DNA from: an uncultured delta proteobacterium
GTDB taxonomy: Bacteria > Desulfobacterota > Binatia > UBA9968
Assembly: GCA_963745035.1 (NCBI GenBank)
Contig: CAVUVW010000014.1
Location: forward strand, 384,001 to 448,000
Direction: 5' to 3'
DNA length: 64,000 nt
The notes below the pieces were generated by a model. It was not told where the DNA came from, ran no database searches, and saw nothing but the letters and a program-made list of their open reading frames with translations. Of the stretch, positions 8,142-27,799 are shown in pieces (position 1 is the first letter of the stretch; each line of letters begins with the position of its first letter). Both the position numbers and the translations under genes were made by a program.

Positions 8142-8196
8142 TAGCTATTCCGCCGAATGTGTTGGCGAGGGCGGACAGGGTGATCAAGTAAATCTG

Positions 8197-11520: not shown

Positions 11521-11648
11521 AAACCCTTATGCCATCCACCAAATCCTCGCTGCGACATAATCCCGACAACACAGGCGCGTCGAAGATGAACGGCAGCGGG
11601 TTTATGGCGAAACATTCCGGACGCGTGGGCATGCCGAGATTTCTTTTT

Positions 11649-11945
11649 ATGAACCGCTTTCGTTCAATCCTTCTTGCCATCCTGCCAATCGTGGTGACTG
11701 CCTGCGCCATGGGCGAATTTCATGAGACGGCTCTATACACACAAGAAACCAATGATGGTGACGGCTACTGCCACAAGGTATTTCAACCCATAGGTCCCAC
11801 AGATCTGATAAGGCCGACGCAAAGCCGCGCAGGCGACTACATCAATTACTCCGGTCCGTGCGACGGCCTCACAGTCGAGGAACAGGCCAGAAAGCAAAGA
11901 CGTTTCGAGCAATTTCGCTTCGGCAGAGACTTCATGCCCGGGTGA
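11649..11945 (+). CDS. Small hypothetical lipoprotein (YCH...GPC family, copy A)
   Basis: MNRFRSILLAILPIVVTAC lipobox, and a close paralog at ~23191-23485. Confidence 0.75.
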   Translation: MNRFRSILLAILPIVVTACAMGEFHETALYTQETNDGDGYCHKVFQPIGPTDLIRPTQSRAGDYINYSGPCDGLTVEEQARKQRRFEQFRFGRDFMPG

Positions 11946-12060: not shown

Positions 12061-13044
12061 ATGAAAAGAATTTTCATCGCCCTCGCTCTTCTCATCATGC
12101 TCCCTGGCTTTGCTGTCATCGCTCAGGCTCAGCAAACGGCAAGACTCCCGCGCGTCGCGCGCCTTTCACCGAGCACTGCGAACGCGGATGAGATCATGCT
12201 GGCGGGGTTTCGGCAGGGACTGAAAGAGCACGGCTGGATAGAGAACAAGAATATCGCGCTCGAATACCGATTCGCGGACGGCAAAACCGATCGGCTGAAC
12301 GACCTTGCGGCAGAACTTGTCCGGCTTAAAGTCGACGTTATCCTCTCCGGAGCGACCGTAGGCGCGCAGGCTGCCAAACGCGCGACCAGTACGATTCCGA
12401 TCGTGCTGGTAACAACCGGCGATCCCGTCGCTGCCGGTCTGGTCGCAAGTTTGGCGCGGCCCGGCGGCAATTTAACCGGAGTGACGGCGCTCGGCCAGGA
12501 ACTGAGCGGCAAGCGGCTCCAGCTTCTCAAAGAAGCTTTGCCCGGTATCAATCACGTAGCGGTATTGTCGAATCCGACCAATCCCGACAGCAAATTCTCC
12601 GTGAAAGAGGTTGAAGCCGCGGCCAATGACCTCGGGGTACGGATCAAAGTGCATGAAGCCGCCGATCCGAGCAGGTTTGAAGGGGCGTTTCGGGCCATGA
12701 CCGCCGAGCGTGCCGGCGCGGTCCTAGTGCTCACGGATTCCATGCTTTTCACGTACCGCAAACGGATCGTAGAACTCGCGGCACAAAGTCGTTTGCCCGC
12801 GATGTATCCCATCAGCGAATACGCGAACGTCGGCGGGCTGATGTTTTACGGCGCGAACTTTCCCGACATGTACCGCCAGGCCGCGGCCTTCGTGGACAAG
12901 ATTCTCAGAGGCACCAGGCCGGCCGATCTTCCGGTCGAGCAAGCGAAGAAATTCGAATTGATTATCAATCTCAATGCCGCCAAGCAGATCGGCCTGACCA
13001 TTCCGCCGAACGTGCTGGCGCGGGCGGACAAGGTGATCAAATGA
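12061..13044 (+). CDS. ABC_sub_bind SBP, array copy 7
   Basis: Signal peptide, [12 protein letters not shown] and conserved tail. Confidence 0.9.
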   Translation: MKRIFIALALLIMLPGFAVIAQAQQTARLPRVARLSPSTANADEIMLAGFRQGLKEHGWIENKNIALEYRFADGKTDRLNDLAAELVRLKVDVILSGATVGAQAAKRATSTIPIVLVTTGDPVAAGLVASLARPGGNLTGVTALGQELSGKRLQLLKEALPGINHVAVLSNPTNPDSKFSVKEVEAAANDLGVRIKVHEAADPSRFEGAFRAMTAERAGAVLVLTDSMLFTYRKRIVELAAQSRLPAMYPISEYANVGGLMFYGANFPDMYRQAAAFVDKILRGTRPADLPVEQAKKFELIINLNAAKQIGLTIPPNVLARADKVIK

Positions 13045-14069
13045 CAGTCGTCAGTAGTCAGTGGTCAGTAGTCAGCAAAAAAGCAGGTCTTTTCTGGTTA
13101 CTGATCACTGTCTTGCTGATTACTGTTTCTCCCGCCACGGCGCAGCAGCCAGCGAAAGTCTCCCGGTTAGGGTATCTATCAAATACCGATCCAGCTACTG
13201 ACTCCGCCCGTGCCGAAGGAATTCGGCTAGCTCTGCGCGAGCTTGGCTACATAGAAGGACAGAACATCGCCATCGAGTACCGATATGCGGAGGGGAGGCC
13301 CGAGCGGGATCCTGGGCTTGCGGCCGAGCTGGTGCGTCTCAAGGTTGATATCATCGTGGTAGCGTCAGGGGACGTGACGATCCGGGCGGCCAAGAATGCA
13401 ACCAAGACGATTCCCATCGTCATGACGGGCCTTGGGTCCGATCCTGTTAGGGCAGGTTTCGTTGAAAGCCTTGCTCGTCCCGGCGGCAATGTCACCGGCC
13501 TCACAGCCCTTAACAGGGAACTAGGCGGGAAGCGGCTGGAGCTGCTCAAAGAAGCGGTTCCCAAACTTTCCTTTGTCGCGGTTCTCTACGATCCGGCCAA
13601 TCCGCCCAGTTTACACGAGATGAAAGAGCTTCTCCCGGTCGACGCGCATGCACTAAAGTTGACTATTCAACCTTGGGAGATACGAGCGGTGGACGACTTC
13701 GAGAAGGTCTTTGCTGCGCTAAACAAGCAGCGCCCGGATGGACTCTACCCGTTCGGCGCGGGCGGGATAATGCGTCCTAACCGAAAACGAATCGTGGACT
13801 TTGCGTTAAAGAGCCGGCTACCGTCGATGTACTCCAGCAGAGAAGCTGTAGAGGCTGGTGGCCTCATGTCCTACGCCGCGGACGTCGCAGACAGTTACCG
13901 GCGCGTAGCTATCTACGTGGACAAAATCCTGAAGGGAGCCAAACCTGCCGATCTCCCTGTCGAACAGCCGACGAAATTTGAGCTGGTGATCAACTTGAAG
14001 ACGGCAAAGCAGATTGGCGTCACCATTTCCCAGAAAGTGCTGGCGCGAGCGGATAAAGTGATCCGATAG
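13041..14069 (+). CDS. ABC_sub_bind SBP, array copy 8
   Basis: ATGA overlap with copy 7 and [12 protein letters not shown]. Very similar to copy 15. Confidence 0.9.
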   Translation: MTVVSSQWSVVSKKAGLFWLLITVLLITVSPATAQQPAKVSRLGYLSNTDPATDSARAEGIRLALRELGYIEGQNIAIEYRYAEGRPERDPGLAAELVRLKVDIIVVASGDVTIRAAKNATKTIPIVMTGLGSDPVRAGFVESLARPGGNVTGLTALNRELGGKRLELLKEAVPKLSFVAVLYDPANPPSLHEMKELLPVDAHALKLTIQPWEIRAVDDFEKVFAALNKQRPDGLYPFGAGGIMRPNRKRIVDFALKSRLPSMYSSREAVEAGGLMSYAADVADSYRRVAIYVDKILKGAKPADLPVEQPTKFELVINLKTAKQIGVTISQKVLARADKVIR

Positions 14070-14111
14070 ACACGGATCGGGGATGTGGCAGGGTTGATTT
14101 GGTGCGCCGGT

Positions 14112-14525
14112 TTAAGGGACGATCTGGAAAGCGCGATTTCGATTCATTCGGTAGCTGGAAAACCCGCGGCGATCAAGAGTGAAAACCCAGTCGGTTTCCA
14201 ATTCTTCTCCCAACACGACAAGGGTGGCATCGGCAAAGTCCATGGGCACATTGCGGTATCTTTCCATCAGTACCGCCACCCGTTGCAAGCTCTTCGCCGA
14301 AGACGGAACCAAGTGAAAAGCCCCTCGGAGAACAAATTCGAGACAAGCTTTCTGCGCGCGCCACTGGGGTCCGACCAAGTGAAGCGTTTCGGTCAAAACG
14401 GCTTCGGTGGTGACGACGGGCCCGGTCCATTTCTCCAACGCCGCCACGCAATCACCATGCAGCTTTTCGTCTCGGTCCACCAGCGCCACGAACGCGCCGG
14501 TATCCAACAAGAGATCATCGGCCAC
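14112..14525 (-). CDS. vapC: PIN-domain (VapC family) toxin
   Basis: LLLDTGAFVAL, TEAVLTE, MDFADA and TLDRRGF acidic PIN motifs. Confidence 0.88.
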   Translation of the reverse strand: MADDLLLDTGAFVALVDRDEKLHGDCVAALEKWTGPVVTTEAVLTETLHLVGPQWRAQKACLEFVLRGAFHLVPSSAKSLQRVAVLMERYRNVPMDFADATLVVLGEELETDWVFTLDRRGFSSYRMNRNRAFQIVP

Positions 14526-14763
14526 GGCGTAATCGACGGATCAGATAGTCGCGGTGGCGCTGCCCGAGATCGGACCGGCCGCTGGCGACGCTGCCGAGAA
14601 GATCACGCACCCGTTCGATGGGGCGCACTTCCGGCTGGGTGTCCAGATATTGCTCCAACGCCTCGCGCACCACTTCCGAGCGCTTGCGTTTCAAGCGCTT
14701 GGCCGACTGCTCCAGCTTTGTGGCCAAATCCGCGGGCAGCCGCATGCTCAATTGCCGTTCCAT
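14515..14763 (-). CDS. Ribbon-helix-helix antitoxin
   Basis: MERQLSMRLPADL...RSEVVREALEQYL, overlapping the PIN gene start. Confidence 0.85.
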   Translation of the reverse strand: MERQLSMRLPADLATKLEQSAKRLKRKRSEVVREALEQYLDTQPEVRPIERVRDLLGSVASGRSDLGQRHRDYLIRRLRRGR

Positions 14764-14884
14764 TGGCTTTGCCTCCCGATGCAATACAATGTAATGCATA
14801 GCGGTACAAATGTCCAATCGTCCGTCAGCAACTCGATGGCGCGTCCCCACAATTGGCTATGCAGTCTTGGGGGCTTCGAGCTGT

Positions 14885-15052
14885 GGACGCCGCAACCTAC
14901 ATGCACAAAATTCTTAAAGGCACCAAGCGCACCGACTCCCTGTCGAGTGGCCAACCAAGTTCGAGTTCGTAACTAATTTGAAAACCGTCAAACACACCGG
15001 TTTAATCATTCCGCCGCATGGCTTGGGGAGAGTCGATAACATCATACGGTGA
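14885..15052 (+). pseudogene. Orphan, degenerate 3' tail of an ABC_sub_bind gene
   Basis: Translates with an indel as AATYMHKILKGTKRTD.PVEWPTKFEFVTNLKTVKHTGLIIPPHGLGRVDNIIR*. No 5' part is present upstream. Confidence 0.8.
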
Positions 15053-15126
15053 GTCGGAAGCGTGATCGATTCGAGTAATCGATTCAGGCAAGATCGGCCA
15101 AATTGGTTAGGACAGGAGGATGTGCC

Positions 15127-16106
15127 ATGAAAACGAAATCCTCTCGCTGGTGGTGCGCCGTCATCCTGCTTGCGACATCCTTTTCAGGCTTCCGCGTCGA
15201 GGCGGCGCAGAAAGACCTGCAAAAACTCACCGTCGGCTACACGCCGATCTCCGGCGCGGCTTTGCCGTTCTTCATCGCCGTGGAAGAAAAACTATTTCAG
15301 AAGCACGGCTTCGAGGTTTCTCCAGTATTCATGGGCGGCTCGCCGCTGATCAATTCGGCGATACTCGCCGGCGAATTTCCCATCGGTTACACCGGCGGCG
15401 GCGCGATCATCTCGAGCCGGCTCGCGGGAAGCGATCTGATCGCGATCGCCTCTCCGCTGTCCGTGCTTACCATCGACGCCTGGGCAAAGCCGGAAATCAA
15501 ATCGGTCAGCGATCTGCGCGGCAAGAGAATCGGCGTCACCCGCTTCGGCGCCTCGACCCATTTCGCCGGCCTGTCGATGTTGGACTCGGCGGGCATCAAG
15601 CCGAACGAGGTTGTTTTCATCCAAAACGGCGGCGTCGGCGAATCGCTCGCCGCTTTGATCGGCGGCCGGGTGGACGCATCGATGATCGGATATCCGTTCG
15701 GCCTTAGAGCGAAAAGCGCCGGCTTTCCTCTCCTCTTCCGGCCGATGGATAGCGATTATGGGCTCTTCCCGACCGCCGTCATTGCGGCGCGAGAGTCCTG
15801 GTTAAAGGATCCGAAGAATCGCAAGGTCGCCGTCGATTTTTTGCGGGCGACTCAACGAGGGACTCCTGCTCACGCGAGAAAGTCCCAACACAGTCAAGCG
15901 AGCGCTGCGAAAATATACTCGCGTCGACGATGAGGCCTTGTTGCAAGGCAGCGTCGAATATTTCCGAGATGCTTTCCCGAAGACGCTTCAGAACCCCGGA
16001 GAAGGCGATGACCAATGCGCTCAAGTTCATCGACCATCCCAAAGCCAAGTCGTACGACGTGACGCAATCTTTCGACAACAGCTTGGTCAACGAAGCGGCC
16101 AAATAG
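15127..16106 (+). CDS. NMT1/SsuA/TauA-type SBP, copy A (frameshifts ~15850-16000)
   Basis: AGGAGG RBS and DLRGKRIGVTRFGAST. Colinear with the intact paralog at 19236..20216. Confidence 0.85.
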
Positions 16107-16138
16107 TCGCAAGCACCAGGCCAATAATAAGAATGCGC

Positions 16139-17113
16139 ATGTCTAGAAAAATTATTCCCTTTTTAGTTTACGCCTTGCTCTTTGCAATTTGCGGCTCTGC
16201 CAATGCGCAGCAAAAGAAAGTCCCCCGAATAGGATACCTGAGCGCTTCCTCGGCTTCCGAGGCGTCAGTAAGGACAAATGCGTTCCGTCAAGGGCTGGAA
16301 GAGCTTGGTTATGTCGAAGGGAAGAATCTTATCCTGGAGTTTCGCTATGCCGAGGGAAAATTCGATCGGCTTTCCCCCCTCGCTGCCGAACTCGTGCGGC
16401 TCAATGTAGACGCTATCGTCACCGCGGGCCCGTCGGTCACCCGCCCCGCGAAGGAAGCGACCGCTGCTATTCCTATCGTCATGACGAACGATAGCGATCC
16501 TATCGGCAGTGGCTTTATCGCCAGTCTGGCGCGGCCCGGAGGGAACGTTACCGGACTATCGAGCCTAGCCCGGGAGTTAAGCGGCAAACGGGTGGAGCTT
16601 CTAAAAGAGATCCTTCCCAATCTTTCTCGCCTCGCGATTTTGGGCACTTTCGATATTCCTGGAAACGCACAAGCTAGCCGAGAGACCGAACAGGCCGCGG
16701 CCGCTTTTAACCTGCAAACGCAATATTTTGACATACAAAGTGCGAAGGATGTCGACGCCGTATTCCGGGCCGCGAACAAATGGCGCGCCGATGCAGGCGT
16801 CGTGCTGAACGGCCCGCCTCATATTCAGCGACTGATTCCCGGCGCCGCAGTAAAGAGCCGGCTCCCCGCTATCTACTCCAATTTGGCAATCATGGACGAT
16901 GCGGGGCTGATGAGCTACGGCACGAATCTCAGCGACCTGGACCGGCGCGCCGCGATTTACGTCGATCGAATTCTCAAAGGGGCCAAGCCAGCCGATCTTC
17001 CCGTCGAGCAGCCGACCAAGTTCGATCTCGTGATCAATTTGAAAGCCGCCAAGCAGATCGGTCTGACGATTCCGCCGAATGTGTTGGCAAGAGCAGATCG
17101 AGTTATCCGATGA
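16139..17113 (+). CDS. ABC_sub_bind SBP, array copy 9
   Basis: Signal peptide and family motifs. Sister of copy 10 (shared LNGPPHIQRLIP). Confidence 0.9.
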   Translation: MSRKIIPFLVYALLFAICGSANAQQKKVPRIGYLSASSASEASVRTNAFRQGLEELGYVEGKNLILEFRYAEGKFDRLSPLAAELVRLNVDAIVTAGPSVTRPAKEATAAIPIVMTNDSDPIGSGFIASLARPGGNVTGLSSLARELSGKRVELLKEILPNLSRLAILGTFDIPGNAQASRETEQAAAAFNLQTQYFDIQSAKDVDAVFRAANKWRADAGVVLNGPPHIQRLIPGAAVKSRLPAIYSNLAIMDDAGLMSYGTNLSDLDRRAAIYVDRILKGAKPADLPVEQPTKFDLVINLKAAKQIGLTIPPNVLARADRVIR

Positions 17114-17148
17114 TTCCAGAATCGAAAGTCCCAATCGTGTAGTGAGCG

Positions 17149-18138
17149 ATGGCGAAGCATCGAAAACGGGCCGAGCTTTTTGCAATCGTTGTCGCGCTCA
17201 CGGTGGGCTGGGCGACGGTTGAGGCGCAGCAGCCGAAGAAAATTCCGCGCATCGGATATCTAAGCGCTTCCTCGGCTGCCGAGGTTTCGCCCCGAACCGA
17301 GGCGTTCCGGCAGGGGTTGCGCGAGCTTGGCTATGTGGAAGGCAAAAGCCTCGTCATTGAGTTTCGCTATGCGGAGGGAAAATTCGACAATCTCGCCGAT
17401 CTCGCAGCCGAACTGGTGCGTCTCAACGTCGACGTAATCGTCACGGCCGGTCCCTCGGTAACCCGTCCCGCCAAGGAAGCTACCGCTACAATCCCCATTG
17501 TCATGACCAACGATACCGATCCGGTTGCGAGCGGATTCGTCGCCAGTCTTGCGCGTCCGGGCGCAAATATTACGGGACTGACCAATCTTGCCCAGGAGTT
17601 AAGTGGAAAACGGCTGGAGCTTCTCAAGGACATTCTTCCCAAGCTCTCGCGCGTCGCCGTACTCGGAACTTCGGATATCCCCAGAAATGCGCAGGCGTTG
17701 AGAGAGACGGAACTAGCCGCAGGCGCGCTCGGTGTCCAGATTCAGTACTTAGACATCCGCACTGCGAAGGATATCGAATCTGCATTTGGAGCTGCGCGCA
17801 AATGGCGCGCTGATGCAGTCTCCGTACTGAACGGCCCGCCCCACATTCAGCGACTGATTCCGGCGATCGCAGCGAAAAGTCGAATGCCTGCTATGTATTT
17901 CAACCCGGCGCTCATCGAACGCGACGAGGGATTAATAAGCTACGGTACGAATCTCAACGATTTGGACAGGCGCGCCGCCGCTTACGTCGACAAAATTCTC
18001 AAAGGCGCGAAGCCCGCCGATTTGCCCGTGGAGCAACCGACCAAATTTGAATTGGTCATCAATCTCAAAACCGCCAAGCAGATCGGCCTGACGATTCCAC
18101 CGAATGTTTTAGCCAGAGCCGACCGGGTGATTAAGTAG
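17149..18138 (+). CDS. ABC_sub_bind SBP, array copy 10
   Basis: Family motifs and conserved tail. Confidence 0.9.
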   Translation: MAKHRKRAELFAIVVALTVGWATVEAQQPKKIPRIGYLSASSAAEVSPRTEAFRQGLRELGYVEGKSLVIEFRYAEGKFDNLADLAAELVRLNVDVIVTAGPSVTRPAKEATATIPIVMTNDTDPVASGFVASLARPGANITGLTNLAQELSGKRLELLKDILPKLSRVAVLGTSDIPRNAQALRETELAAGALGVQIQYLDIRTAKDIESAFGAARKWRADAVSVLNGPPHIQRLIPAIAAKSRMPAMYFNPALIERDEGLISYGTNLNDLDRRAAAYVDKILKGAKPADLPVEQPTKFELVINLKTAKQIGLTIPPNVLARADRVIK

Positions 18139-18174
18139 GCAATAGGCACGAGGCAACAGGCAACAGTGAGGAAC

Positions 18175-19142
18175 ATGAACAAAAGAATTTACAGCTTTGC
18201 TCTTGCCGCTTTGCTCTTCGCGATAAACTCGCCGGCCGAGGCGCAGGTCAAAGGGAAGCCCAAGGTGGGCGTACTCACGCCTGCCGAGCGGCAGTGGGAG
18301 GGCGCGGCGTTCCGTGAGGCATTGCGCGGCCTTGGTTATATTGAAGGATCGAATATTCGATCGATGTTCGCTCGGCGGAAGGCAAGCTGGAGCGCATGCC
18401 GGAGTTGGCGGCGGCGCTCGTCAACTCCGATGTCGATGTGATCCTTTCCGTAAACACGCCGGGGGCGCGCGCAGCCATCGAAGCGACCAAGACGGTTCCC
18501 ATCGTCATGACTGCCATAGGCGACCCGGTCGGCTTGGGCTTGGTGACGAGTCTGGCCCGACCGGGAGGCAATGTTACGGGCCTTTCGAACATGAGCGGGG
18601 ATTTGGCCGGGAAGCGTCTTGAGCTGCTCAAAGAAGCCGTTCCGGCGGCAAGGCGCATCGCCGTGATGATGCATCCCGATGAGCCGATCGTGCCGATTCA
18701 AGTCAAAGACATCAACGCGACGGCCGCTCGTATGGGAGTGGAGTTGGAAATTATTCCGTTGCGCCACACCCACGAGCTCGAGCGGGCTTTTCAAAGAGCT
18801 CTTCAATGGCGCGCGCAAGGATTGTTGCGCTTGGCAGGACAAGCGACGGTGATCGGCCCGCCGACGGCTGAGCTGGCTTTGAAACACCGGATGCCCGCCA
18901 TGCTGCTGCTCAGACAGGACGTCGAGGCCGGCGCGCTTATGTCGTACTTTACCGATCATCCAGCGATGTTTCGGCGCGCCGCCGCGTACGTCGATAAGAT
19001 CTTGAAAGGAAGCAAAGTAGGCGAGCTTCCCGTCGAGCAGCCTTCACGATTCGAATTTTACGTAAATTTGAAGACGGCGAAGCAAATCGGCTTGACGATT
19101 CCACCGAACCTGCTAGCGCGAGCAGACAAAGTAATCAGATAG
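18175..19142 (+). CDS. ABC_sub_bind SBP, array copy 11 (frameshift ~18360)
   Basis: ORFs 18166..18441 and 18396..19142 join into one paralog. Confidence 0.85.
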
Positions 19143-19235
19143 GCAACAGGCACGAGGCAACAGGCAACAGAAAGAAAGCTGAAAAATCTAAAATCAAAAA
19201 TCGCAAATCGAAAATACTAAGAGGGGAGGATTACC

Positions 19236-20216
19236 ATGAAAGCGAGAGACCCGCGTTGGTGGTTTATAACCTTCCTGACTACGGCATCGTTGCTGAGCGT
19301 CTGCGCGCATGCGGCGCAAAGGGATTTGCAAAAGCTCACGGTCGGCTACACGCCGATCGGCGGCGCGGCGATCCCGCTATATATCGCCGTGGAAGAGAAA
19401 ATCTTTCAGAAGAATGGCTACGATATTTTCCCCGTGTTCATGGGCGGCTCGCCGCTGATCAATTCGGCGATCCTCGCGGGTGAATTCCCCATCGGCTACA
19501 CCGGAGGCGGCGCGATCATCGCCAGCCGGCTAAGCGGCAGCGACCTGATCGCCATCGCCTCTCCCCTGCCCGTGCTTACTATCGACGGCTGGTCCAAGCC
19601 CGAGATCAAATCCATCGGCGATGTCAAAGGCAAAAGAATCGGGGTTACGCGCTTCGGCGCATCGAGCTACTTCTCGGCCCTCTCCATGTTGGAGTCGGGC
19701 GGCGTGAAGCCGACCGAAGTAACGTTCATTCAGAATGGCGGCGTCGGCGAATCCTACGCCGCCCTCGTCGGCGGTCGCGTCGATGTGTGCATGATCGGCT
19801 ATCCTTTCGGGCTCAGCGCCAAGAACGCCGGATTCAATCTGCTGTTCCGGCCTTTGCAGAGTGAATACGGGCTCTTTCCAACCGCGGTGATTGGAGCGCG
19901 CGAGTCCTGGCTCAAGGAACCGAAGAATCGCAAGGTCGCCGTCGAGTTTCTCCGCGCCCTCCACGCAGGCCAACAGTTGGCCAGGGAAAACGCCGCGGTG
20001 ACCAAGCGCGCGCTGCGTAAATTCACCCGCACCGAAGATGACGCATTACTGCAAGGCACTTTCGAGTTCTACAAGGACGCCTTCCCGAGCTCGCTTCGGG
20101 TCAACGAAAAAGCGATGGCGAACGCGCTCAAGTTCGTCGAACATCCGAAAGCCAAGCAGTTCGACGTGCGCCAGTCCTTCGACAACAGCTTCGTCGATGA
20201 GGCAATGAGGCAGTAG
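19236..20216 (+). CDS. NMT1/SsuA/TauA-type SBP, copy B
   Basis: GGAGG RBS, signal peptide and DVKGKRIGVTRFGASS. Confidence 0.88.
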   Translation: MKARDPRWWFITFLTTASLLSVCAHAAQRDLQKLTVGYTPIGGAAIPLYIAVEEKIFQKNGYDIFPVFMGGSPLINSAILAGEFPIGYTGGGAIIASRLSGSDLIAIASPLPVLTIDGWSKPEIKSIGDVKGKRIGVTRFGASSYFSALSMLESGGVKPTEVTFIQNGGVGESYAALVGGRVDVCMIGYPFGLSAKNAGFNLLFRPLQSEYGLFPTAVIGARESWLKEPKNRKVAVEFLRALHAGQQLARENAAVTKRALRKFTRTEDDALLQGTFEFYKDAFPSSLRVNEKAMANALKFVEHPKAKQFDVRQSFDNSFVDEAMRQ

Positions 20217-20301
20217 GTGAGAGGCATGAGGCACGAGCAACAGGCATGAGGCGTAGATCAACCGTCAGCGTGGAACGATTTTGAATTGCAGGAGAAAATT
20301 A

Positions 20302-20652
20302 ATGAGACGAAAGCGTTTTGCTGAATTTAGGAATCTCCAGTCCGGCAATCTGAGCGCTCTTATCGCTATGCTGTTTGTGTTTGAAACTCTGCTGCCGATC
20401 CCGCTACTCTGGGCGGCGGAAGGCGTTATCTACAAAGTTTCCGATTCGACCGGCACATACTGTCATCTCAAGTTTCCGGCGATCACCAGGAACACGCTTT
20501 TTTCAGATCGGCCGGTTCTGAAGGACCCGAGCGAAGGCGATATTCGAGATTTCTATGGACGCTGCGATTACGATCCGCTGGGTGCAGAGGAAATTCGCCG
20601 CCAACGGGTCGAGCACCAGCGTCAGCGCCGCCGGATTCTCAGCAGAGATTGA
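20302..20652 (+). CDS. Small secreted hypothetical protein (distant YCH...GxC family member)
   Basis: Hydrophobic leader, then GTYCHLKF...GDIRDFYGRCDYDPLGAEEIRRQR. Confidence 0.7.
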   Translation: MRRKRFAEFRNLQSGNLSALIAMLFVFETLLPIPLLWAAEGVIYKVSDSTGTYCHLKFPAITRNTLFSDRPVLKDPSEGDIRDFYGRCDYDPLGAEEIRRQRVEHQRQRRRILSRD

Positions 20653-20762
20653 CGGATCTCCTGCTTGAACATTCCAAGGGTAGCTATGATCAGCAAAGCC
20701 TACGCACTGGCTTGAGGCGTGAGCCGTGAGGCGTCAGGCGTGAGAATACTGAGAATACAAGG

Positions 20763-21749
20763 ATGAATCAAAACATTTTTCGTTTCATGCTTTGCGGAAT
20801 GCTCTTGGCGTTTTGCCTCCCCGCCGAGGCGCAGCAGACAGGAAAAATCTTCCGCATCGGTTACCTGGATACCAGCACTGCTTCCGGTAGCGCAGTCCAC
20901 ATTGATGCCTTCCGCCAGGAGATGCGCAAGCTTGGATGGATCGAGGGAAAGAATATCACTATCGAGTATCGGTTTGCCGAGCAAAAAAATGAGCGCTTGC
21001 CCGAGCTTGCGGCGGACTTGGTTCGTCTTAAGGTTGATCTGATTGTGGTCGTGGGGACGCAAGCGTCTTTGGCGGCAAAGCGAGCAACTGCGACCATCCC
21101 CATCGTGATGGCGAGCGTTGCGGACCCTGTGGCGGCGGGCCTGGTTGCCAGTCTGGCGCGGCCGGGAGGCAATGTGACCGGGACTATCGGGTTTATCGCC
21201 TGAGCTAAATACCAAAAGGTTGGAGATACTTAAGGACGCGGTCCCCAAGCTCGTCCGTGTTGGACTTTTTGGCTGTCGGGACGCGGCATAGGACAAGAAC
21301 TCCAAATGAAAGAGCTTAGGCCTGCGGCTCTGGCACTGAAGCTAAATTGGAGGAGATCGAGACTCAACCCGACGCCAAAGGTTTAGAGAGCGCCTTTCAA
21401 ACCGCCAAGCAGAAGCAAGTCAACGCGATTATGACGACCACCGGTACTTCCTTTTTCGCTGAAAGAAAGCGGATCGTCGAGCTTGCCGCCAAATACCGGC
21501 TGCCTGCTATTTACACACAGAAGGAGTTTGTCGTTGCGGGCGGTCTCATTCCTATGGGGTGGATCTCTTGAGCTCTGCCGACGCGCGGCGGGTTACGTGG
21601 ACAAAATCTTGAAAGGCGCCAAACCGGCTGATTTGCCGGTGCAGCAGGCAACCAAGTTTGAATTCATCATCAACCTGAACGCGGCAAAGCAAATCGGTCT
21701 GACAATTCCAGCGCGCGTGCTCGAGCGGGCGAATCAGGTGATTAAATAG
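20763..21749 (+). CDS. ABC_sub_bind SBP, array copy 12 (several frameshifts)
   Basis: Fragments 20763..21203, 21347..21571 and 21483..21749 reconstruct a full paralog. Confidence 0.8.
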
Positions 21750-21978
21750 GCAATAGGCATGAGACAACAGTAAGAAAGTTGAATCGGGCAATAGGTAAAA
21801 CATTTGTAGTGAGCTGTGTCGAAACCATTAAAAATCTCAAATCGGAAGATTCTGCCCAACGTACAGGCGTAATCAGATAGAAGTTGGAGTTATGGAATAT
21901 TTGGGCAGCCGGGAAAAAGCATTACTTCGGTACTCCAATACTCCAGTACTCCAACGAAGCTGAGTTAGGAGAGCCAAC

Positions 21979-22962
21979 ATGCAGAAGACGTTTTTGCCCT
22001 GGGTCCTGCTAACCGCATTTCTGACAATCGTTTCTCCCGCGTCAGCGCAGCAGACGGAGAAGACTTGGAAGATCGGCGTGCTGGTTTCCGGCACGGCCTC
22101 GATCAACGCGCCGCGCGATGAAGCGCTGCGCCGCGGGCTCCGCGATTTCGGTTACGAAGAGGGCAAGAATATTGTGTTCGCCTACAGGTATGCCGAAGGC
22201 AAAACCGATCGCTTGCCAAAACTCGCCAAAGAACTGATCGCGGAAAAGCCCGATGTGGTGGTCGTCGGCGGCACCGCCGTCGCCGTCGCGGCGAAAAACG
22301 CCACCAGCACGATCCCGATCGTCGTCGCGGGAGCGGGCGACCTCGTCGAAGCCGGACTCATCAAAAGCTTCATGTATCCCGGCGGCAATGTGACCGGCGT
22401 GGCGCGGCTATCGGCCGATTTCTTCGGCGACCGGCTCAAGCTTATTAAGGAAGTAGTGCCAAAGGCAGCCCAAGTAACGGCGCTTTCAAATCCGAACAAT
22501 TCCGGCCATGGCCGCAGCCTCAAAGACGCCGAGTTGGGCGCGCGTTCGTCGGCCATGACCTTCGGAAACGTCAGCGCGCGATCAGCCGATGAGCTGGATA
22601 AAGCGATCGCCGCTGCCGCGCAAGGCGGCGCCAGCGCGCTCTTTCTGATGACCGATGCCATGTTCAACTCCAACCTGGCGCGGATCGCGCAACTTGCGCT
22701 CAAGCACCGACTACCGTCGGTTTACGATCGCACCGAGTATGTCGAGGCCGGCGGGCTGATGAGCAATGGCGTGAATCTCTCCGATCTCTCGCGCCGCGCC
22801 GCCGAGTACGTTCACCAAATTCTCAAAGGCACCAAGCCGGGCGACCTCACTCTCGTCCAGCCGACCAAATTCGATCTGGCGGTGAATCTCAAGACCGCTC
22901 AGCAGATCGGATTAACTATTCCGCCGAATGTTTTGGCGAGAGCGGACAAAGTAATTAAGTAA
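21979..22962 (+). CDS. ABC_sub_bind SBP, array copy 13 (divergent)
   Basis: AGGAG RBS, KSFMYPGGNVTG and conserved tail. Confidence 0.9.
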   Translation: MQKTFLPWVLLTAFLTIVSPASAQQTEKTWKIGVLVSGTASINAPRDEALRRGLRDFGYEEGKNIVFAYRYAEGKTDRLPKLAKELIAEKPDVVVVGGTAVAVAAKNATSTIPIVVAGAGDLVEAGLIKSFMYPGGNVTGVARLSADFFGDRLKLIKEVVPKAAQVTALSNPNNSGHGRSLKDAELGARSSAMTFGNVSARSADELDKAIAAAAQGGASALFLMTDAMFNSNLARIAQLALKHRLPSVYDRTEYVEAGGLMSNGVNLSDLSRRAAEYVHQILKGTKPGDLTLVQPTKFDLAVNLKTAQQIGLTIPPNVLARADKVIK

Positions 22963-23190
22963 GGAGTAAGTGGTGAGAAGTGAGGCGAAACAGAAATTTT
23001 GGATTTTGGATTGTCTATTTTGGATCAACGGTGCACGAAATATTTCGGACTCAATCCTCGATGCTCGCTCCGACAGTCGGGAAAAAACAGCAGGGAATGA
23101 TCCGATGAACCAGGCGACAGCCGCAAGCCAATGGGCTAGAGTCAGCCGATCTAGGATCACGCAAATCTGATTACAGATGAGGACATTTGA

Positions 23191-23485
23191 ATGAATGGAT
23201 TTCGCCTATAAATATCCTGCTTTCTATCTTGCTAGTCTTTTTCGTTGGCTTTGCTACCGGCGATTTCGATCAAGCAACCCGTACGAGCAAGAGATAGCTA
23301 AGGGCTACTGCCACAGGATATTGCAACCCGTGGGTCCCACCGAGATCATAAGACCGACGCAAAGCCGGTCCGGCGATTACATCAGCTACTACGGCCCCTG
23401 CGAGGGACCCTCCGCTGAGGAGCAGGCCAGAAAACAAAGACGTTTTGAGCGCTACCGCTTCGGCAGAGACTTCATGCCCGGATGA
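23191..23485 (+). CDS. Small secreted hypothetical protein (YCH...GPC family, copy B; 5' frameshifts)
   Basis: GYCHRILQPVGPTEIIRPTQSRSGDYISYYGPCEGPSAEEQARKQRRFERYRFGRDFMPG matches copy A. The hydrophobic leader ILLSILLVFFVG is in another frame. Confidence 0.75.
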
Positions 23486-23560
23486 GCACGGATTGAATGG
23501 AGTGAGCGCAACATTCCTTTGCACATCGCTTCGCTTGCCTGCATGAAATATTTGCCCGGG

Positions 23561-23665
23561 CAACCGACGAAGTTTGAGTTCGTGGTCAATCTCAAAACAG
23601 CGAAGCAAATCGGCCTGACGATTCCGCCGAACGTGCTGGCGCGGGCGGACCGGGTAATTCGGTGA
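23561..23665 (+). pseudogene. Orphan, well-conserved 3' tail of an ABC_sub_bind gene
   Basis: [34 protein letters not shown] with unrelated sequence upstream. Confidence 0.88.
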
Positions 23666-23696
23666 AGTGAAGGGTGAGGAGTAAGGCGAATCCAAA

Positions 23697-24687
23697 ATGA
23701 AAATCCAAAATCCACAATGGCTGGGGGCTTTTACATTCGCCTTCGCGCTAGTCGGGGCCGCGGTTCAGGCTCAGCAGCCGACTAAAATCCCCCGGATCGG
23801 GTATCTCATCACTTCGTCGCCTGCGGCGATCGCGCCGCGCATGGAAGCATTTCAGCAAGGGCTGCGTGATCTCGGCTATGTCGAGGGGAAAAATATTGTC
23901 ATCGAGCACCGCTATGCAAACGGACGATCCGATCAACTCCGTGTGCTCGCCGCCGAACTGGTGCAACTGAACGTAGACATCATCGTTTCCAGCGGTCCGA
24001 CGGCGACGCGCCCCGCTAAGGAAGCAACCTCCAAAATCCCTATTGTCATGACCTTCGATGATGATCCAATCGGCAGCGGCTTCGTCGCCAGTCTCGCCCG
24101 GCCGGGTGGGAACGTCACCGGTTTGTCGACGCTTTCACCGGAGATCAGCGGAAAGCAACTGGAGCTGTTGAAAGAGATCGTGCCCAAGATCACTCGAGTA
24201 GCTGTGCTGGGAACTTTGACGAGGGAAGGCACCGCGCAGAATCTAAAAGAGATGGAACTCGCCGCTGGAGCATTCGGACTGAAGCTTAAATATTTGGACA
24301 CGCAAAATGTCAAGGACATCGAGGGTAGCTTCGAAAACGCGAGTAAAGGGCGCGCCGAGGCCGTCCTCATATTGCAGAGCCCGGTGTTCAATTCGCAACG
24401 ACCACAGATCGCGGAGCTCGCGCTAAAGAGGCGGCTTCCCGCGATCTATCCGCGACGAGAATTCGTCGAAGACGGCGGTCTGATGAGCTACGGCGTGAGC
24501 ATTCTCGATTTGGACCGCCGCGCCGCGATTTACGTGGACAAGATCCTCAAGGGTGCCAAGCCCGCCGATCTCCCAGTCGAGCAGCCGAACCAAGTTTGAG
24601 CTGATGATCAATCTAAAAGCCGCCAAGCAAATCGGCCTGATCATTCCTCCCAACGTCCTGGCGCGTGCGGACAAAGTAATACGGTAA
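23697..24687 (+). CDS. ABC_sub_bind SBP, array copy 14 (frameshift ~24590)
   Basis: Family motifs. The tail continues in another frame to TAA at 24687. Confidence 0.87.
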
Positions 24688-24806
24688 GGAGTAAGTGGTG
24701 AGGAGTGAGGCGAAAAACAAATTTTGGATTTTCGATTGAAACCCAAGAGAACAAACCGATGAACGCAATGCCTTCGAAGTCTCTTTCCGACAATCCAAAA
24801 CCTGTC

Positions 24807-24847
24807 CCTTCGATAAACTCAGGGCAGGCTCTGAGCCATGCCGAAGG
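24807..24847. repeat. REP-like imperfect palindrome
   Basis: CCTTCGATAAACTCAG-GGCAGGCT-CTGAGCCATGCCGAAGG, flanked by heptamer repeats. Confidence 0.6.
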
Positions 24848-24869
24848 ATCGGCAATCGAAAATCGAAAA

Positions 24870-25859
24870 TTGGTGGGGATTGTTGCTCTCGCTGTCGCAT
24901 TCATAACGTGTGGGGCCTTGGCCACGGCGCAGCAGCCGAAGAAAGTCTCCCGAATAGGGTATCTTTCGAATACCGATGCAGCTACTGACTCCGCCCGCGC
25001 CGAGGGAATTCGGCTGGCTCTGCGCGAGCTTGGCTACATAGAAGGACAGAACATCGCCATCGAGTACCGATATGCGGAGGGGAAGGTCGATCGGGCTCCT
25101 GAGCATGCGGCGGAGCTTGTGCGTCTGAAGGTTGATATCATCGTGGTAGCGTCAGGGGACCCGTGGATCCGGGCGGCCAAGAATGCAACCAAGACGATTC
25201 CCATCGTCATGATGGGCCATAGGGTCCGATCCTGTTAGGGCAGGCTTCGTTGAAAGCCTTGCTCGTCCCGGCGGCAATGTCACCGGCCTCACAGCCCTTA
25301 CCAGAGAACTAGGCGGGAAGCGGCTGGAGCTGCTCAAAGAAGCGGTACCCAAACTTGCCCGTGTCGCGGTTCTCTACGATCCGGCCAATCCGCCCAGTGT
25401 ACGCGAGGTGAAAGAGGTTCTCCCAGTCGCGGCGCGTGCGCTGGGGTTGACTATTCAACCTTGGGAGGTACGAGCTGCGGGCGGTTTCGAGAGGGTATTT
25501 GCTGCGATAAACAAGGAGCGCCCGGATGGACTCTACTCGTTCGCCGCGGGCCCGGTAATGCGTCCTAACCAAAAACGAATCGTGGGCTTTGCGTTAAAGA
25601 GCCGGTTACCGTCGGTGTACAGCAGCAGAGAAGCTGTAGAGGCCGGCGGGCTCATGTCCTACGGCCGGGACCTCGCGGACAGCTACCGGCGCGTAGCCAC
25701 CTACGTGGACAAGATTCTGAAAGGCGCCAAGCCCGGCCGACCTGCCGGTGGAGCAGCCGACCAAGTTCGAGTTGGTGATCAATCTGAAAACAGCGAAGCA
25801 GATCGGCGCTGACGATTCCGCCGAACGTGCTGGCGAGGGCGGATAGGGTGATTCGCTAA
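24870..25859 (+). CDS. ABC_sub_bind SBP, array copy 15 (frameshifts; start uncertain)
   Basis: [41 protein letters not shown], nearly identical to copy 8. Confidence 0.85.
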
Positions 25860-25892
25860 GCAGTGAAGGAGATGAAGAGATGATCGCAAGCA

Positions 25893-26345
25893 TTACGGAC
25901 CAGAAGGCGAACTGAGCTTGGCCTCGAGGGTGGCGACTTCTTTTACGACGAGCCAGTCCTCCGGATTAAGCACGCTTACCTGAGAACTATTAAAGTCCTT
26001 TGTGTTTCGAGTAATGAGATGATTCACGGAGACAGATTCAGCACTGGCGAGTTGAATGTTATCCTCGAAGTCGGTCCCGGCAGAGGTGAGCGCGCGGTCG
26101 AGAATGATTGGAGTCAGTGGAACCAGCTGAAGCCCTTTCAAGATCTCCCGCGCATCGGCGCGAGCAGTATTCTCATCGACGACGCGTCGCCTAAAGAAGT
26201 AGATCAAGGGGAGAGTAAGCGCCGAAGACCAACTCTCGATTTCTTGCGATCGGCGGGCCAAGTTAAGCACCCGGAGACTTTGGCTCCAACCGTTTCGTTT
26301 CGTCATCACGTCAATGAAGACATTAACGTCGATGAAGATTTTCAA
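25893..26345 (-). CDS. PIN-domain toxin (PIN_3-like)
   Basis: IFIDVNVFID, DFEDNIQ and LITRNTKDF. Confidence 0.88.
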   Translation of the reverse strand: MKIFIDVNVFIDVMTKRNGWSQSLRVLNLARRSQEIESWSSALTLPLIYFFRRRVVDENTARADAREILKGLQLVPLTPIILDRALTSAGTDFEDNIQLASAESVSVNHLITRNTKDFNSSQVSVLNPEDWLVVKEVATLEAKLSSPSGP

Positions 26346-26632
26346 TCCGTCAATCTCCGGGCGATGGACTCGCTAATAAGGGCTTTATCGTCTTGGACGG
26401 GATTTTCCGGATGGATTCCAACAAGCTTAAGAAGTTCGGGATCAATGGGCACATTGGGGCATTGCTTAGATACGGCGTCTCGGTCTGCTTTGGTTTGTCG
26501 CTGCTTTGCCTCATCCCGCTCTTTTTCTTCAAGCAGTGAGCGCAGTTGTCGTTCAAGGGCTCGCAGGGTGGCGACATCCTCGTCTCTCACAAGTTTAAGC
26601 AACTGGTCCAGTTCTTCCGCTGTCTTCCCCAT
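26342..26632 (-). CDS. Putative antitoxin
   Basis: Small charged helical protein that overlaps the PIN start by 4 nt. Confidence 0.65.
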   Translation of the reverse strand: MGKTAEELDQLLKLVRDEDVATLRALERQLRSLLEEKERDEAKQRQTKADRDAVSKQCPNVPIDPELLKLVGIHPENPVQDDKALISESIARRLTD

Positions 26633-26702
26633 GATAAGTGGAATTATAGACAGTGGCGCGAGCAATGGTCAAGCCAATCGGCGACGATCACCGCAGATCG
26701 CC

Positions 26703-26777
26703 CTGAAAACAGTGAAGCAGATCGAACTTGCAATCCCGCCGAATGTGCTGGCTCGGGCGGATAAGGTGATCAAGTGA
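26703..26777 (+). pseudogene. Orphan 3' tail of an ABC_sub_bind gene
   Basis: [24 protein letters not shown] directly after the TA promoter region. Confidence 0.85.
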
Positions 26778-26820
26778 CACCAACGCAACAGGCATTAGAC
26801 ACTAGACAATAGAAAAAGAC

Positions 26821-27799
26821 ATGAAGAGAAAAATTATCGTCCTTGCGCTTTGCGCCGTGCTGTCATCGCTTGGCTTGTCCGCTGAGGCACAGCAGTCCGT
26901 GACGGTCCCCCGGATTGGGTTTCAATCCGCAGGTAGCAGGGAGGCCTGTTAGGAAGGAGTTTGTCCGTGGACTCCGTGATTTGGGATATGTGGAAGGACA
27001 AAACATCCTTATCGAGTGGCGATTTGCGGAAGGGAAACTCGATCAGGTCCCGCGCAACGCGGCGGAGCTAGTCCGCGCAAAGGTCGAAGTCATTGTTACT
27101 GGTGGTTCGACGGATACCCGTGCTGCCAAGGAAGCAACCAACACGATTCCCATTGTGATGGTCCAGGATAACGATCCTGTTGGGAGCGGGTTCGTCGCCA
27201 GCCTGGCGCGACCCGGCGGAAACATCACGGGATTGTCCACCCTTCGTGCGGAGACTAGTGGAAAACGGCTGGAGCTTTTGAAGGAGATTGTTCCTAAGCT
27301 TTCGCGCGTGGCGATTCTCGGGGACCTCAAGCAATCCAGGCAACGCCCAAGGACTAAAAGAGACGGAACTCGCTGCTTCAGCGTTCAAAATACAACTTCA
27401 ATACCTGAACGTACAAAAGTCTCAAGGATTTAGAGAGTGCATTTCGAGAGGTGCGCAAGGGAGCTGCTGACGCGGTTCTCGATCTGGGAGGCCCGGTATT
27501 AACCGTTCAGCGAAGAGCGCTTGTAGACCTCGCGGCAAAGAGCCGGCTCCCGATGATGTACGTCAGGCGAAGTTTGTCGAAGCGGGCGGCCTTATCAGCT
27601 ATGGCGTGAACCTTTCCGACCTACAGCGGCGCGCCGCTACCTATGTGGACAAGATTTTGAAAGGCGCCAAGCCCTGCTGAATTGCCAGTAGAGCAGCCGA
27701 CCAAGTTCGAGCTGTTCATTAATCTCAAAGACAGCGAAGCAGATCGGTCTGACGATTCCGCCGAATGTGCTGTCGCGGGCGGATCGGGTGATCAAATAA
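26821..27799 (+). CDS. ABC_sub_bind SBP, array copy 16 (several frameshifts)
   Basis: [14 protein letters not shown] leader, [12 protein letters not shown] and tail ending at TAA 27799. Confidence 0.8.

Follow-up and report, generated by a model that had tools for sequence, protein, structure and literature searches.

Toxin–antitoxin cassettes and orphan gene tails in a tandem array of substrate-binding-protein genes from a Candidatus Binatia-type genome

Some genomic islands integrate at the 3′ end of tRNA or protein genes, duplicating that end. Integron cassette arrays are organized around IntI, attI and attC, and sedentary chromosomal integrons hold toxin–antitoxin (TA) cassettes, as described in PMC13108822 and PMC4889954. 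In effector–immunity displacement arrays, according to the account in PMC5361080, modules are displaced by anchored illegitimate recombination with 3′ ends left behind, a process that its authors themselves liken to integrons; orphan 3′ regions of Rhs/CDI systems are a related case (PMC3967940). TA islets are described as spreading by homologous recombination at flanking core genes (PMC13617665), and homologous recombination between tandem paralogues is the subject of PMC9484751. Here we describe an array of substrate-binding-protein (SBP) genes in which TA cassettes are followed by isolated SBP 3′ ends. These orphan tails look like the outcome of ordinary recombination and gene decay rather than a new integron-like machine.

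The window, the whole 64,000-nt stretch of DNA that was analysed, contains part of a large tandem PF04392 SBP array in a Candidatus Binatia-type genome:

2100–29874, forward strand: tandem array of about 21 PF04392 SBP paralogs, several of them frameshifted in this assembly (tblastn and HMM maps, Pfam, tail copies)

The repeated gene encodes an ABC substrate-binding protein (Pfam PF04392, ABC_sub_bind; 154.8 bits, profile positions 15–293 of 293), and the match reaches the last profile position, so the conserved tail belongs to the domain. A nucleotide profile built from the last 243 nt of 45 intact SBP genes finds 21 tail copies running to the stop codon inside the array, the number given by an earlier sequence-only reading of this DNA, and a 22nd at 41686–41927. 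Genome-wide, about 107 SBP loci of about 1 kb in 7.4 Mb give the arrays a share of roughly 1.4% by our estimate. The tails are diverged, with a mean pairwise identity of 0.75 and a maximum of 0.89 over 820 pairs; pairs share a longest identical run of 14 nt at the median, only 4% of them reach 25 nt, and RecA-type exchange must therefore be rare. Tails of neighbouring genes are no more similar than those of non-neighbours, and the 820 pairs show no sign of recent gene conversion or homogenisation.

Three sites in the array carry non-SBP cargo followed by an isolated SBP tail:

13041–14069, forward strand: intact SBP gene 5′ of TA1; the usual heptamer-repeat spacer is absent after its stop (ORF, Pfam)
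14112–14525, reverse strand: TA1 toxin, PIN domain, VapC-like (Pfam PF01850, 43 bits)
14515–14850, reverse strand: TA1 antitoxin, RHH/CopG (Pfam PF01402)
14888–15052, forward strand: orphan tail 1, SBP 3′ remnant, model nt 78–243, TGA end (nucleotide profile)
21979–22962, forward strand: intact SBP gene 5′ of the small-ORF cargo; heptamer-repeat spacer kept (ORF)
23195–23485, forward strand: 96-aa ORF, the ‘small protein’ cargo, no Pfam family (ORF, Pfam search)
23550–23665, forward strand: orphan tail 2, well preserved, model nt 125–243, TGA end (nucleotide profile)
24882–25859, forward strand: SBP gene 5′ of TA2, in four frame pieces here (tblastn and HMM maps)
25893–26345, reverse strand: TA2 toxin, PIN_3 domain (Pfam PF13470, 49 bits)
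26342–26665, reverse strand: TA2 partner, 107 aa, putative antitoxin, no Pfam family (ORF, Pfam search)
26702–26777, forward strand: orphan tail 3, model nt 168–243, TGA end (nucleotide profile)

This architecture, including the end of all three remnants at the normal stop codon, had been proposed by the sequence-only reading and is borne out by the nucleotide profile and Pfam, with orphan coordinates shifted by a few bases only. Orphan tail 1, which could possibly start as early as about 14850, is also degenerate and frameshifted, a state that had gone unremarked, and is followed by an NMT1-type gene. After orphan tail 2 come a normal spacer and then an SBP gene; after orphan tail 3, a heptamer spacer and then an SBP gene that is broken. 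Relatives of the TA1 antitoxin align from query residues 15–30, placing its true start likely near 14763; promoter scans give a promoter-like site for this gene at 14816–14788 and a strong one for the TA2 partner at 26672–26643. The 96-aa ORF has a paralog ending at 11945, and none of its homologs in related genomes adjoins a tail.

Assembly error in a repeat-rich metagenome-assembled genome might be suspected here, since many SBP genes are frameshifted and some frameshifts coincide with 1-nt differences in other data. In the SBP gene at 24882–25859, metagenome contigs differ by 1 nt at 25220, 25732/25735 and 25808/25809, and some of its frameshifts may be assembly errors. An artefactual origin of the layout itself is hardly credible: independent contigs from three other studies span cargo and orphan at all three sites (X1, 13968–15316; X6, 22752–23626; X5, 26212–26902), and the layout is also found in independently assembled genomes.

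Further features of the array are:

10252–10295, forward strand: mini-orphan tail of 44 nt, model nt 194–237, after the spacer of the SBP gene at 9238–10203 and 5′ of a cargo of MBL plus small ORF (tail profile)
6671–8140, reverse strand: IS element (terminal inverted repeats, CTAG duplication) inside the tail of the SBP gene at 5705–6682, with the remainder of the split tail at 8141–8190
4145–4495, reverse strand: Asp_protease_2 gene, antisense, a TA-like cassette with an SBP gene on either side and no orphan tail

The mini-orphan and the split tail were absent from the sequence-only reading. No orphan tail follows the two NMT1-type genes and the MBL gene of this array.

Across the arrays of the host genome, all nine Pfam-recognisable TA or TA-like cassettes lie antisense to the SBP genes. 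Their types are PIN+RHH, PIN_3+107 aa, ParE+PF09720, PemK+101 aa, PemK+RHH, DUF4258+DUF2283, a solitary FitA-like RHH, and Asp_protease_2 plus a small partner, this last being no more than TA-like. By gene layout and domain content, this cargo fits type II TA operons, with two small adjacent or overlapping genes, one encoding a known toxin domain and the other a small partner that is DNA-binding or an antitoxin. An orphan follows five of the nine cassettes, a mini-orphan precedes two, and two have neither. In four of the five cassettes followed by an orphan, the heptamer spacer is absent after the upstream SBP gene, the exception being a PemK cassette on contig C2, whereas the orphans retain their own spacers, as expected if a spacer plus a gene body had been replaced.

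Orphans are strongly biased to the 3′ end of the gene. The whole genome contains about 16 short orphans of the 3′ end, none longer than 171 nt, and one short non-tail fragment, so that fragments of other gene regions, which would have pointed to random deletion, are not equally common. The bias is not due to detection, because 35-aa pieces from anywhere in the SBP gene are recovered at a mean rate of 0.80. The 5′ boundaries of the orphans vary widely (model nt 73, 78, 105, 114, 123, 125, 141, 145, 147, 148, 162, 168, 186 and 194–216) and differ even within the TA1 family.

Such remnants could arise by erosion alone, with TA cassettes inserted in spacers of a dispensable array, redundant SBP genes cut back to their extreme ends by one deletion after another and the tail playing no role in recombination; differing flanks among genomes would then reflect independent insertions and ordinary array turnover. 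Every intermediate state is present after TA cassettes, from a full SBP gene (two cases) through broken SBP genes and long orphans to mini-orphans of 36–50 nt. Orphans without cargo occur on contigs C13 (1123594 and 1120469), C2 (11416) and C17 (189817), and at least four orphans sit in stretches too short for a gene, so deletion alone suffices to make them. Decay is visible in several orphans, namely orphan 1 and those of genomes G004, G027, G041 and G007, and the lack of homogenisation among tails also agrees with erosion. It does not account, however, for the tight TA-to-orphan junctions, which measure about 25–90 nt and hold no recognisable spacer or gene-start remains.

Other Candidatus Binatia-type genomes show the same arrangement beside different SBP paralogs. 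Among 25 TA1 loci with at least 70% amino-acid identity, a tail lies no more than 200 nt from the toxin end in 13, which erosion alone does not explain, given that arrays make up about 1.4% of the genome, and an orphan flanks the antitoxin in 10; among 48 more distant TA1 loci, none has an SBP hit. TA1 identity across genomes is 0.72–0.85 and that of the flanking SBPs mostly 0.45–0.62, the SBP paralogs next to TA1 changing from genome to genome. In seven TA1 loci the junction between TA and orphan is similar (model nt 163–187) but the downstream SBPs differ, and in genome G004 two cassettes stand with a tail between them, in the order SBP, PIN/MazE cassette, orphan, TA1. Orthology of the flanking genes is hard to judge among so many SBP paralogs, and orphan detection in relatives favours well-preserved copies.

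The arrangement SBP–TA2–orphan is found in three genomes in three different contexts. Genomes G041 and G007 share a unit comprising the spacer, TA2 and the first ~55 nt of the orphan: identity rises from ~0.65 to 0.85–1.0 at the SBP stop codon and drops again ~55 nt inside the orphan. In its 3′ part, the G041 orphan matches the upstream tail of the same genome (~88% identity, counted by eye), an indication of recombination within tails. Both this chimeric orphan and the sharp identity breaks at tails are left unexplained by erosion alone, which we consider possible at well below even chances. G041 and G007 are the only clean mosaic pair found; in this pair identity breaks within the anchor as the module changes context, and the TA1 loci lend indirect support. 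No clear empty site was found in the relatives.

We favour, at about an even chance, a reading in which TA islets displaced or outlived neighbouring SBP genes, and general or homology-facilitated recombination occasionally used the tail as passive homology. On this view, selfish type II TA operons and TA-like ones, all of them small, would colonise the SBP array, always antisense, and each orphan tail would be the surviving 3′ end of an SBP gene whose 5′ part was displaced when the cassette entered or was whittled off later by deletions. These deletions would be bounded by an addictive TA on one side and the next gene on the other. The tail would recur through conservation of the protein end, without being a dedicated DNA site, and its ~75%-identical segment of ~130–240 nt could act as passive flanking homology. 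Rare RecA-type or homology-facilitated illegitimate recombination may then place TA plus tail beside different SBP paralogs, both within and between related genomes. Comparable reasoning has been published for other loci (PMC13617665 and PMC5361080). The data show directly the architecture, its recurrence, the bias in orientation, the variable boundaries and one mosaic pair; how recombination proceeds, in which direction and when, and whether addiction helps to retain the cassettes, we infer.

The sequence-only reading had gone further, proposing that units of gene plus tail are inserted, excised and shuffled by recombination at the tail, driven by RecA or by a recombinase in trans, with the tail functionally like attC but embedded in coding sequence. 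In its active form, such an integron analogue would release the units as circles that could re-enter at any tail. Part of this stands. Direct tail repeats do bracket the cargo, the layout recurs, tail breakpoints are seen between G041 and G007, and both the two-cassette array of G004 and the seven TA1 loci with a similar junction and different downstream SBPs speak for it. The genome also encodes an integron integrase, although the only one above cut-off (TIGR02249, 445 bits) lies on another contig (C6:42134–43036). The repeats that flank cargo are, however, only 65–78% identical and no closer to each other than to random tails (ranks 52, 65, 8, 55 and 67 of 78), which is too diverged for efficient excision, and the 15 joints listed from metagenome contigs include none that is circular, lacks cargo or marks an excision. 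No recombinase gene adjoins the arrays: as that reading had noted for the window, a PF00589 search finds no tyrosine recombinase inside or beside the arrays on C2, C14 and C17. Orphans are also absent at non-TA cargo and at two TA cassettes, and elsewhere they arise without any cargo through simple internal deletion.

The likeness to attC is not supported. Over ten folds, covering each strand of three intact tails and of two orphans, tails fold no better than shuffled sequences (z from −1.81 to +0.60) and share no common hairpin, and a search against Rfam finds no match. Identical codons are more frequent in the tail (0.48) than elsewhere (0.38), and synonymous-site conservation, observed over expected, is 1.36 compared with 1.17–1.19; the excess is modest, with most third positions varying freely, and suggests that the tail is conserved mainly as protein. 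Together with the variable orphan boundaries, these results make excision and reinsertion of circles quite unlikely. An integron/attC cassette array was likewise rejected as a class, as there is no adjoining intI, no attC-like fold and no precise conserved boundary.

Remnants of site-specific integrative elements at the SBP 3′ end, with the intact tail as attL and the orphan as attR, would give the matching topology of intact target, cargo and 5′-truncated copy running through the stop codon into native DNA. We find this very improbable, and the corresponding island class was rejected: the cargo of 600–870 nt has no integrase, and the repeats, at 65–78% identity, are not near-identical. No common core is apparent at the junctions, the left ones lying 24–137 nt past the stop codon in relatives and 42 nt past it in the window, and boundaries differ even among TA1 loci.

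If TA islets did displace or outlive SBP genes at these tails, the array would offer a testable example of how such islets spread without mobility genes: paralogs present in many copies and sharing one highly conserved segment would provide about 100 landing pads per genome, and a truncated gene end would be the diagnostic scar. The uniformly antisense orientation (9/9) and the TA density suggest that repeat arrays and addiction modules interact, in a way comparable to TA cassettes in chromosomal integrons but lacking the integron machinery. A bolder version, which we regard as unlikely, is that SBP 3′ ends are portable sites at which Binatia capture, stockpile and exchange antisense TA (possibly defence) cassettes, forming an integrase-free analogue of the integron in which TA modules guard the array from collapse. 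For annotation, short ORFs ending in the C-terminal motif of the SBP family are better treated as remnants than as genes, and for method the lesson is that a coding repeat can mimic a recombination site.

Like genomic islands at gene 3′ ends, the locus has an intact target on one side and a 5′-truncated 3′ copy on the other, but it has no integrase, very small cargo and diverged repeats. It resembles integron arrays, as described in PMC13108822 and PMC4889954, in its small cassettes, many of them TA modules with their own promoters, and in the repeat copy after each; as in chromosomal integrons, the TA modules could plausibly help to stabilise an array of repeats. Unlike in integrons, the repeat is the end of a protein-coding gene, conserved mainly at the amino-acid level, the 5′ boundaries vary, the cassettes are antisense, the repeats are 65–78% identical, and there is neither an attC-like fold nor an adjoining integrase. 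The tandem paralogues of PMC9484751 share with our locus an array evolving by recombination among copies, but the turnover described there is of the paralogs themselves, whereas here foreign cassettes are flanked by truncated copies. The TA islets of PMC13617665, as portrayed there, are likewise compact, patchy TA-only loci without mobile-element genes that move by flanking homology and then erode; here the homology is a multi-copy paralog repeat with many landing sites, and a diagnostic truncated copy is left. As in the displacement arrays of PMC5361080, entry is beside a conserved coding anchor, a truncated remnant lies beyond the module, and homologous or homology-facilitated illegitimate recombination without an integrase is proposed. 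Those arrays are anchored in the constant 5′ part of a single toxin gene and leave immunity genes or variable 3′ regions as remnants, whereas our locus is anchored in a conserved 3′ end shared by about 100 SBP paralogs, with unrelated antisense TA operons as the incoming modules.

The window belongs to a 7.43-Mb genome in 28 contigs (58% GC), whose PF04392 ABC substrate-binding protein (SBP) family numbers 107 loci on a six-frame HMM map, concentrated in arrays on three contigs: C2, C14, which carries the window at 384001-448000, and C17. Conservation is highest in the C-terminal ~44 residues of the protein, where amino-acid identity between paralogs is 0.77-0.87 as against 0.2-0.66 elsewhere. 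Scored with a 243-nt nucleotide profile (positions hereafter designated 'model nt'), this 3′ tail occurs genome-wide in 98 copies that reach a stop codon, 21 of them in the window array. Over 820 pairs, tail identity averages 0.75, with identical runs of at least 25 nt in 4% of pairs, and the tails of neighbouring SBP genes are no more similar than others.

Features of the SBP array in the window
2100-29874, all genes in one orientation: SBP array, ~21 genes of ~325 aa, with the PF04392 (ABC_sub_bind) match running through the last profile position
6671-8140, minus strand: IS element inside the tail of SBP 5705-6682, transposase as two overlapping ORFs, ~17-nt terminal inverted repeats, CTAG target duplication
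13045-13075, 18137-18166, 19141-19215, 20197-20252, 20709-20744, 22996-23025, 23689-23718 and 26796-26821: heptamer-type spacers

Most SBP stop codons genome-wide are followed by a spacer in which a unit of 7-8 nt is repeated 2-8 times in tandem. The units belong to a small number of families (such as AGGCAAC, GGCGTGA, CAGTAGT, and ATTTTGG with its complement), and some of these spacers reach into the beginning of the following gene. They resemble the heptamer tandem repeats of cyanobacteria. Solitary SBP genes carry a different conserved motif of ~27 nt 3′ of their TAA stop instead. Immediately 3′ of the array, 29985-32928 holds a HAMP/GAF-type sensor ORF and a histidine kinase ORF, apparently overlapping in different frames, which may be a single gene split by a frameshift. 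Within the array, contigs of other metagenomes show 1-base indels at 21343, 21709/21713, 25220, 25732/25735 and 25808/25809, at or near frame changes of SBP genes 20781-21746 and 24882-25856; assembly errors may lie behind many of the 'broken' SBP genes, and strain differences behind some.

Three times in the window, as the sequence-only reading had noticed, an isolated 5′-truncated tail, or orphan, stands after cargo and ends at a stop codon. All three cargo-orphan junctions are bridged by contigs from soil and rhizosphere metagenomes of other studies, so this layout is not a misassembly.

Orphan tails in the window
14888-15052: model nt 78-243 of 243, ending TGA, frameshifted and degenerate; cargo in front, PIN + RHH operon (TA1, minus strand)
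23550-23665: model nt 125-243, ending TGA; cargo in front, a 96-aa ORF of no known family
26702-26777: model nt 168-243, ending TGA; cargo in front, PIN_3 + 107-aa operon (TA2, minus strand)

Across the genome, ~16 orphans of at most 171 nt run to a stop codon, compared with a single short SBP fragment from outside the tail (C26 83491-83583) and a few partial genes of greater length; random deletion leaving orphans equally often from other gene regions is clearly not what we find. When 41 intact genes were cut up and searched at the same threshold, pieces of 35 residues were recovered at a mean rate of 0.80 and pieces of 45 residues at 0.95, rates that are somewhat optimistic because these genes also trained the profile. 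The 3′ bias of short SBP fragments is not a detection artefact. Every stage of decay is present, from the full gene down to a 36-nt stub. At least four orphans lie in stretches too short for a gene: at C13 1123594 and C2 11416 a spacer alone separates the orphan from the upstream gene, and both look like internal SBP gene deletions; the orphan at C13 1120469 comes after another orphan; the fourth is a mini-orphan at C17 189817-189862. Heptamer repeats in inverted orientation flank the stretch between this mini-orphan and the SBP stop (C17 189862-190018; ~1046-1200 of extracted locus L004), which could fold into an extended hairpin resembling a miniature inverted-repeat element. We rejected the possibility that orphans in this genome are recent copies of the upstream tail, which ranked 52, 65, 8, 55 and 67 of 78; C13 1123594 was left out of this test because its 240-nt extract contained the upstream gene's own tail, making its 100% value artefactual.

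We took a census of cargo in every array gap of at least 300 nt, naming ORFs by Pfam. Nine cassettes hold a toxin-antitoxin (TA) or TA-like family, and all nine are antisense to the SBP genes.

TA and TA-like cassettes of the arrays
Window: PIN + RHH (TA1), orphan after
Window: PIN_3 + partner (TA2), orphan after
C17: ParE + PF09720, orphan after
C2: PemK + 101 aa, 36-nt mini-orphan after
C2: Asp_protease_2 + 76 aa, orphan after
C2: DUF4258 + DUF2283, mini-orphan before
C2: solitary FitA-like RHH, mini-orphan before
C17: RHH + PemK, no orphan
Window, 4145-4495: Asp_protease_2, no orphan

An orphan follows five of the nine cassettes and one copy of the small ORF. None follows the other non-TA cargo, namely two NMT1-type genes, a serpin, DUF4440, a 23S_rRNA_IVP protein and an MBL gene with a small ORF. 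A DUF6036 pair on C11 is co-oriented with its SBP genes. The small ORF has three copies in the genome (window 11600-11945 and 23195-23485; C2:200691-200798), conserved in their C-terminal half and matching no Pfam family; its second copy is the sole non-TA cargo followed by an orphan in the arrays of this genome. Homologs are present in 6 of the genus's 30 genomes, and the copy at C2:200691 is another; none of these is close to a tail, so small-ORF cargo is not generally tail-linked. In a relative (G011:C204, locus L108, 730-1134), an NMT1-type gene is followed by two orphans ~240 nt apart and then an SBP gene, and non-TA cargo elsewhere can therefore also precede orphans. We rejected the tail as a promoter of the downstream gene or TA operon: a scan for one promoter type found no sigma-70-like site recurring in tails, and TA1 and TA2 have promoter-like sites of their own within the cassettes. 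A diversity-generating retroelement, with template and variable repeat, was also considered; the cargo ORFs include no visible reverse transcriptase.

The sequence-only reading had proposed that [gene + tail] units are shuffled in integron-like fashion, with the tail as an attC-like coding repeat. In paralog pairs of less than 65% identity, positions with the same residue also share the codon at a rate of 0.48 in the tail versus 0.38 elsewhere, which after correction for amino-acid composition becomes a ratio of 1.36 versus 1.17-1.19, so that synonymous divergence is nearly equal in tail and gene body; at most tail codons, three or four synonyms alternate freely. The tail repeat would therefore result mainly from conservation of the protein. 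The attC-like site is not supported: neither strand of tails or orphans folds better than shuffled DNA (z from -1.81 to +0.60), Rfam at gathering threshold has no match in the window, orphan 5′ boundaries are scattered over model nt 73-216, and the tail repeats that flank cargo are 65-78% identical and not mutual nearest tails. The IS element lies at model nt 193, near a common mini-orphan boundary at 194-198; we take this as chance, the CTAG duplication being specific to that gene's sequence. No integrase or recombinase adjoins the SBP arrays; the sequence-only reading had likewise seen no integrase in the window. A true integron integrase lies on C6 (42134-43036; ~635-1537 of locus L097, minus strand; TIGR02249, 445 bits, cut-off 265), and a brief look at 18.5 kb beside it found large ORFs, with no family of repeats that would suggest a cassette array. 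Among the 15 joints listed (339 more exist), none is a tail-to-orphan excision or empty-site joint, in contig data that are uninformative on absence, and many of the 15 have short sides, typical of paralog cross-matches. An active cassette system is quite improbable.

Relatives do not keep an identical gene order. Around SBP 13041 and the NMT1 gene, a full SBP gene precedes the NMT1 gene in G003, G011 and G012 and a longer 5′-truncated one in G004; the spacers do not align, and the orphan at 14888-15052 might descend from that gene. The unpublished genome G005 counts in the genus tallies and supplies locus L014 to this comparison; no claim depends on it otherwise. Kin genomes, here and below, are non-independent, and SBP paralogy blurs orthology. 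Of 30 other genomes of the genus, two carry TA2, each time as SBP, antisense TA2 and orphan, in different surroundings: enoyl-CoA hydratase genes flank it in G041, and in G007 it precedes a convergent NMT1-type gene. Between these two genomes the SBP tails share ~0.65-0.75 identity. From the stop codon onward identity is abruptly 0.85-1.0, a level that holds across TA2 and ~55 nt into the orphan before dropping sharply; beyond that point, the rest of the G041 orphan shares an unusual 3′ ending with the SBP gene upstream of it in G041. This apparently chimeric orphan is the best single sign of crossover or conversion within a tail. Erosion alone, in which orphans would be no more than leftovers of decaying genes, would suit the deletion-like orphans and the graded series of remnants; beside this chimera we regard it as possible but doubtful.

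TA1 was found at 73 loci in a scan of genome collections. Of these, 25 reach 70% residue identity or more; among them, an SBP tail lies within 200 nt of the toxin end in 13 and an orphan on the antitoxin side in 10, a count biased to preserved copies, and 10 lack both, in some cases because little flanking sequence is available or for other reasons. The other 48 loci, which are more distant, gave no SBP match at all. Seven antitoxin-side orphans have their 5′ boundary within model nt 163-187. Between loci, TA1 is 0.72-0.85 identical at the nucleotide level, versus mostly 0.45-0.62 for flanking SBP genes (a few pairs at 0.68-0.75 are possibly orthologous), and the homology block ends at the toxin stop codon and ~55-90 nt upstream of the antitoxin. 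In G004 (locus L015; G004:C1, 1726-3423), antisense PIN + MazE-type and PIN + RHH operons follow a broken SBP gene back to back, with only a 95-nt orphan tail in between.

The reading we prefer, at about an even chance, is a composite of TA cassettes, gene decay and rare tail-anchored recombination. TA operons would be selfish and hard to delete, and a dispensable array of ~100 paralogs would tolerate them. For four of the five orphan-followed TA cassettes the upstream gene lacks its usual heptamer spacer, and the orphans keep theirs; the SBP gene upstream of the C2 PemK cassette keeps its spacer. This pattern suggests that the spacer and most of the next SBP gene were replaced or later deleted. 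With deletions blocked on one side by the TA operon and on the other by the next gene, the last remnant of a dead SBP gene would be its extreme 3′ end. The tail is the sole sequence common to all array members and related genomes, and rare homologous or homology-facilitated illegitimate exchange anchored in it could move a TA + tail unit to another paralog, which would account for the G041-G007 mosaic, the chimera in the G041 orphan, the variety of flanking genes and the strong enrichment of TA1 beside tails. Our guess for the uniform antisense orientation is that an autoregulated operon is selected to avoid read-through from array genes.

Literature searches returned nothing on PF04392 arrays or on Binatota with toxin-antitoxin systems, and only general works on TA with direct repeats. 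A flanking-homology logic has already been proposed for TA islets at other loci (excerpts of PMC13617665), and the same logic for effector-immunity and Rhs arrays, in which displaced 3′ ends accumulate (excerpts of PMC5361080). The arrangement is no new class of recombination system; we file it as a displacement and homology-arm array, which differs from the effector-immunity and Rhs arrays in its new gene family, the SBPs, and in having TA operons as the incoming modules.
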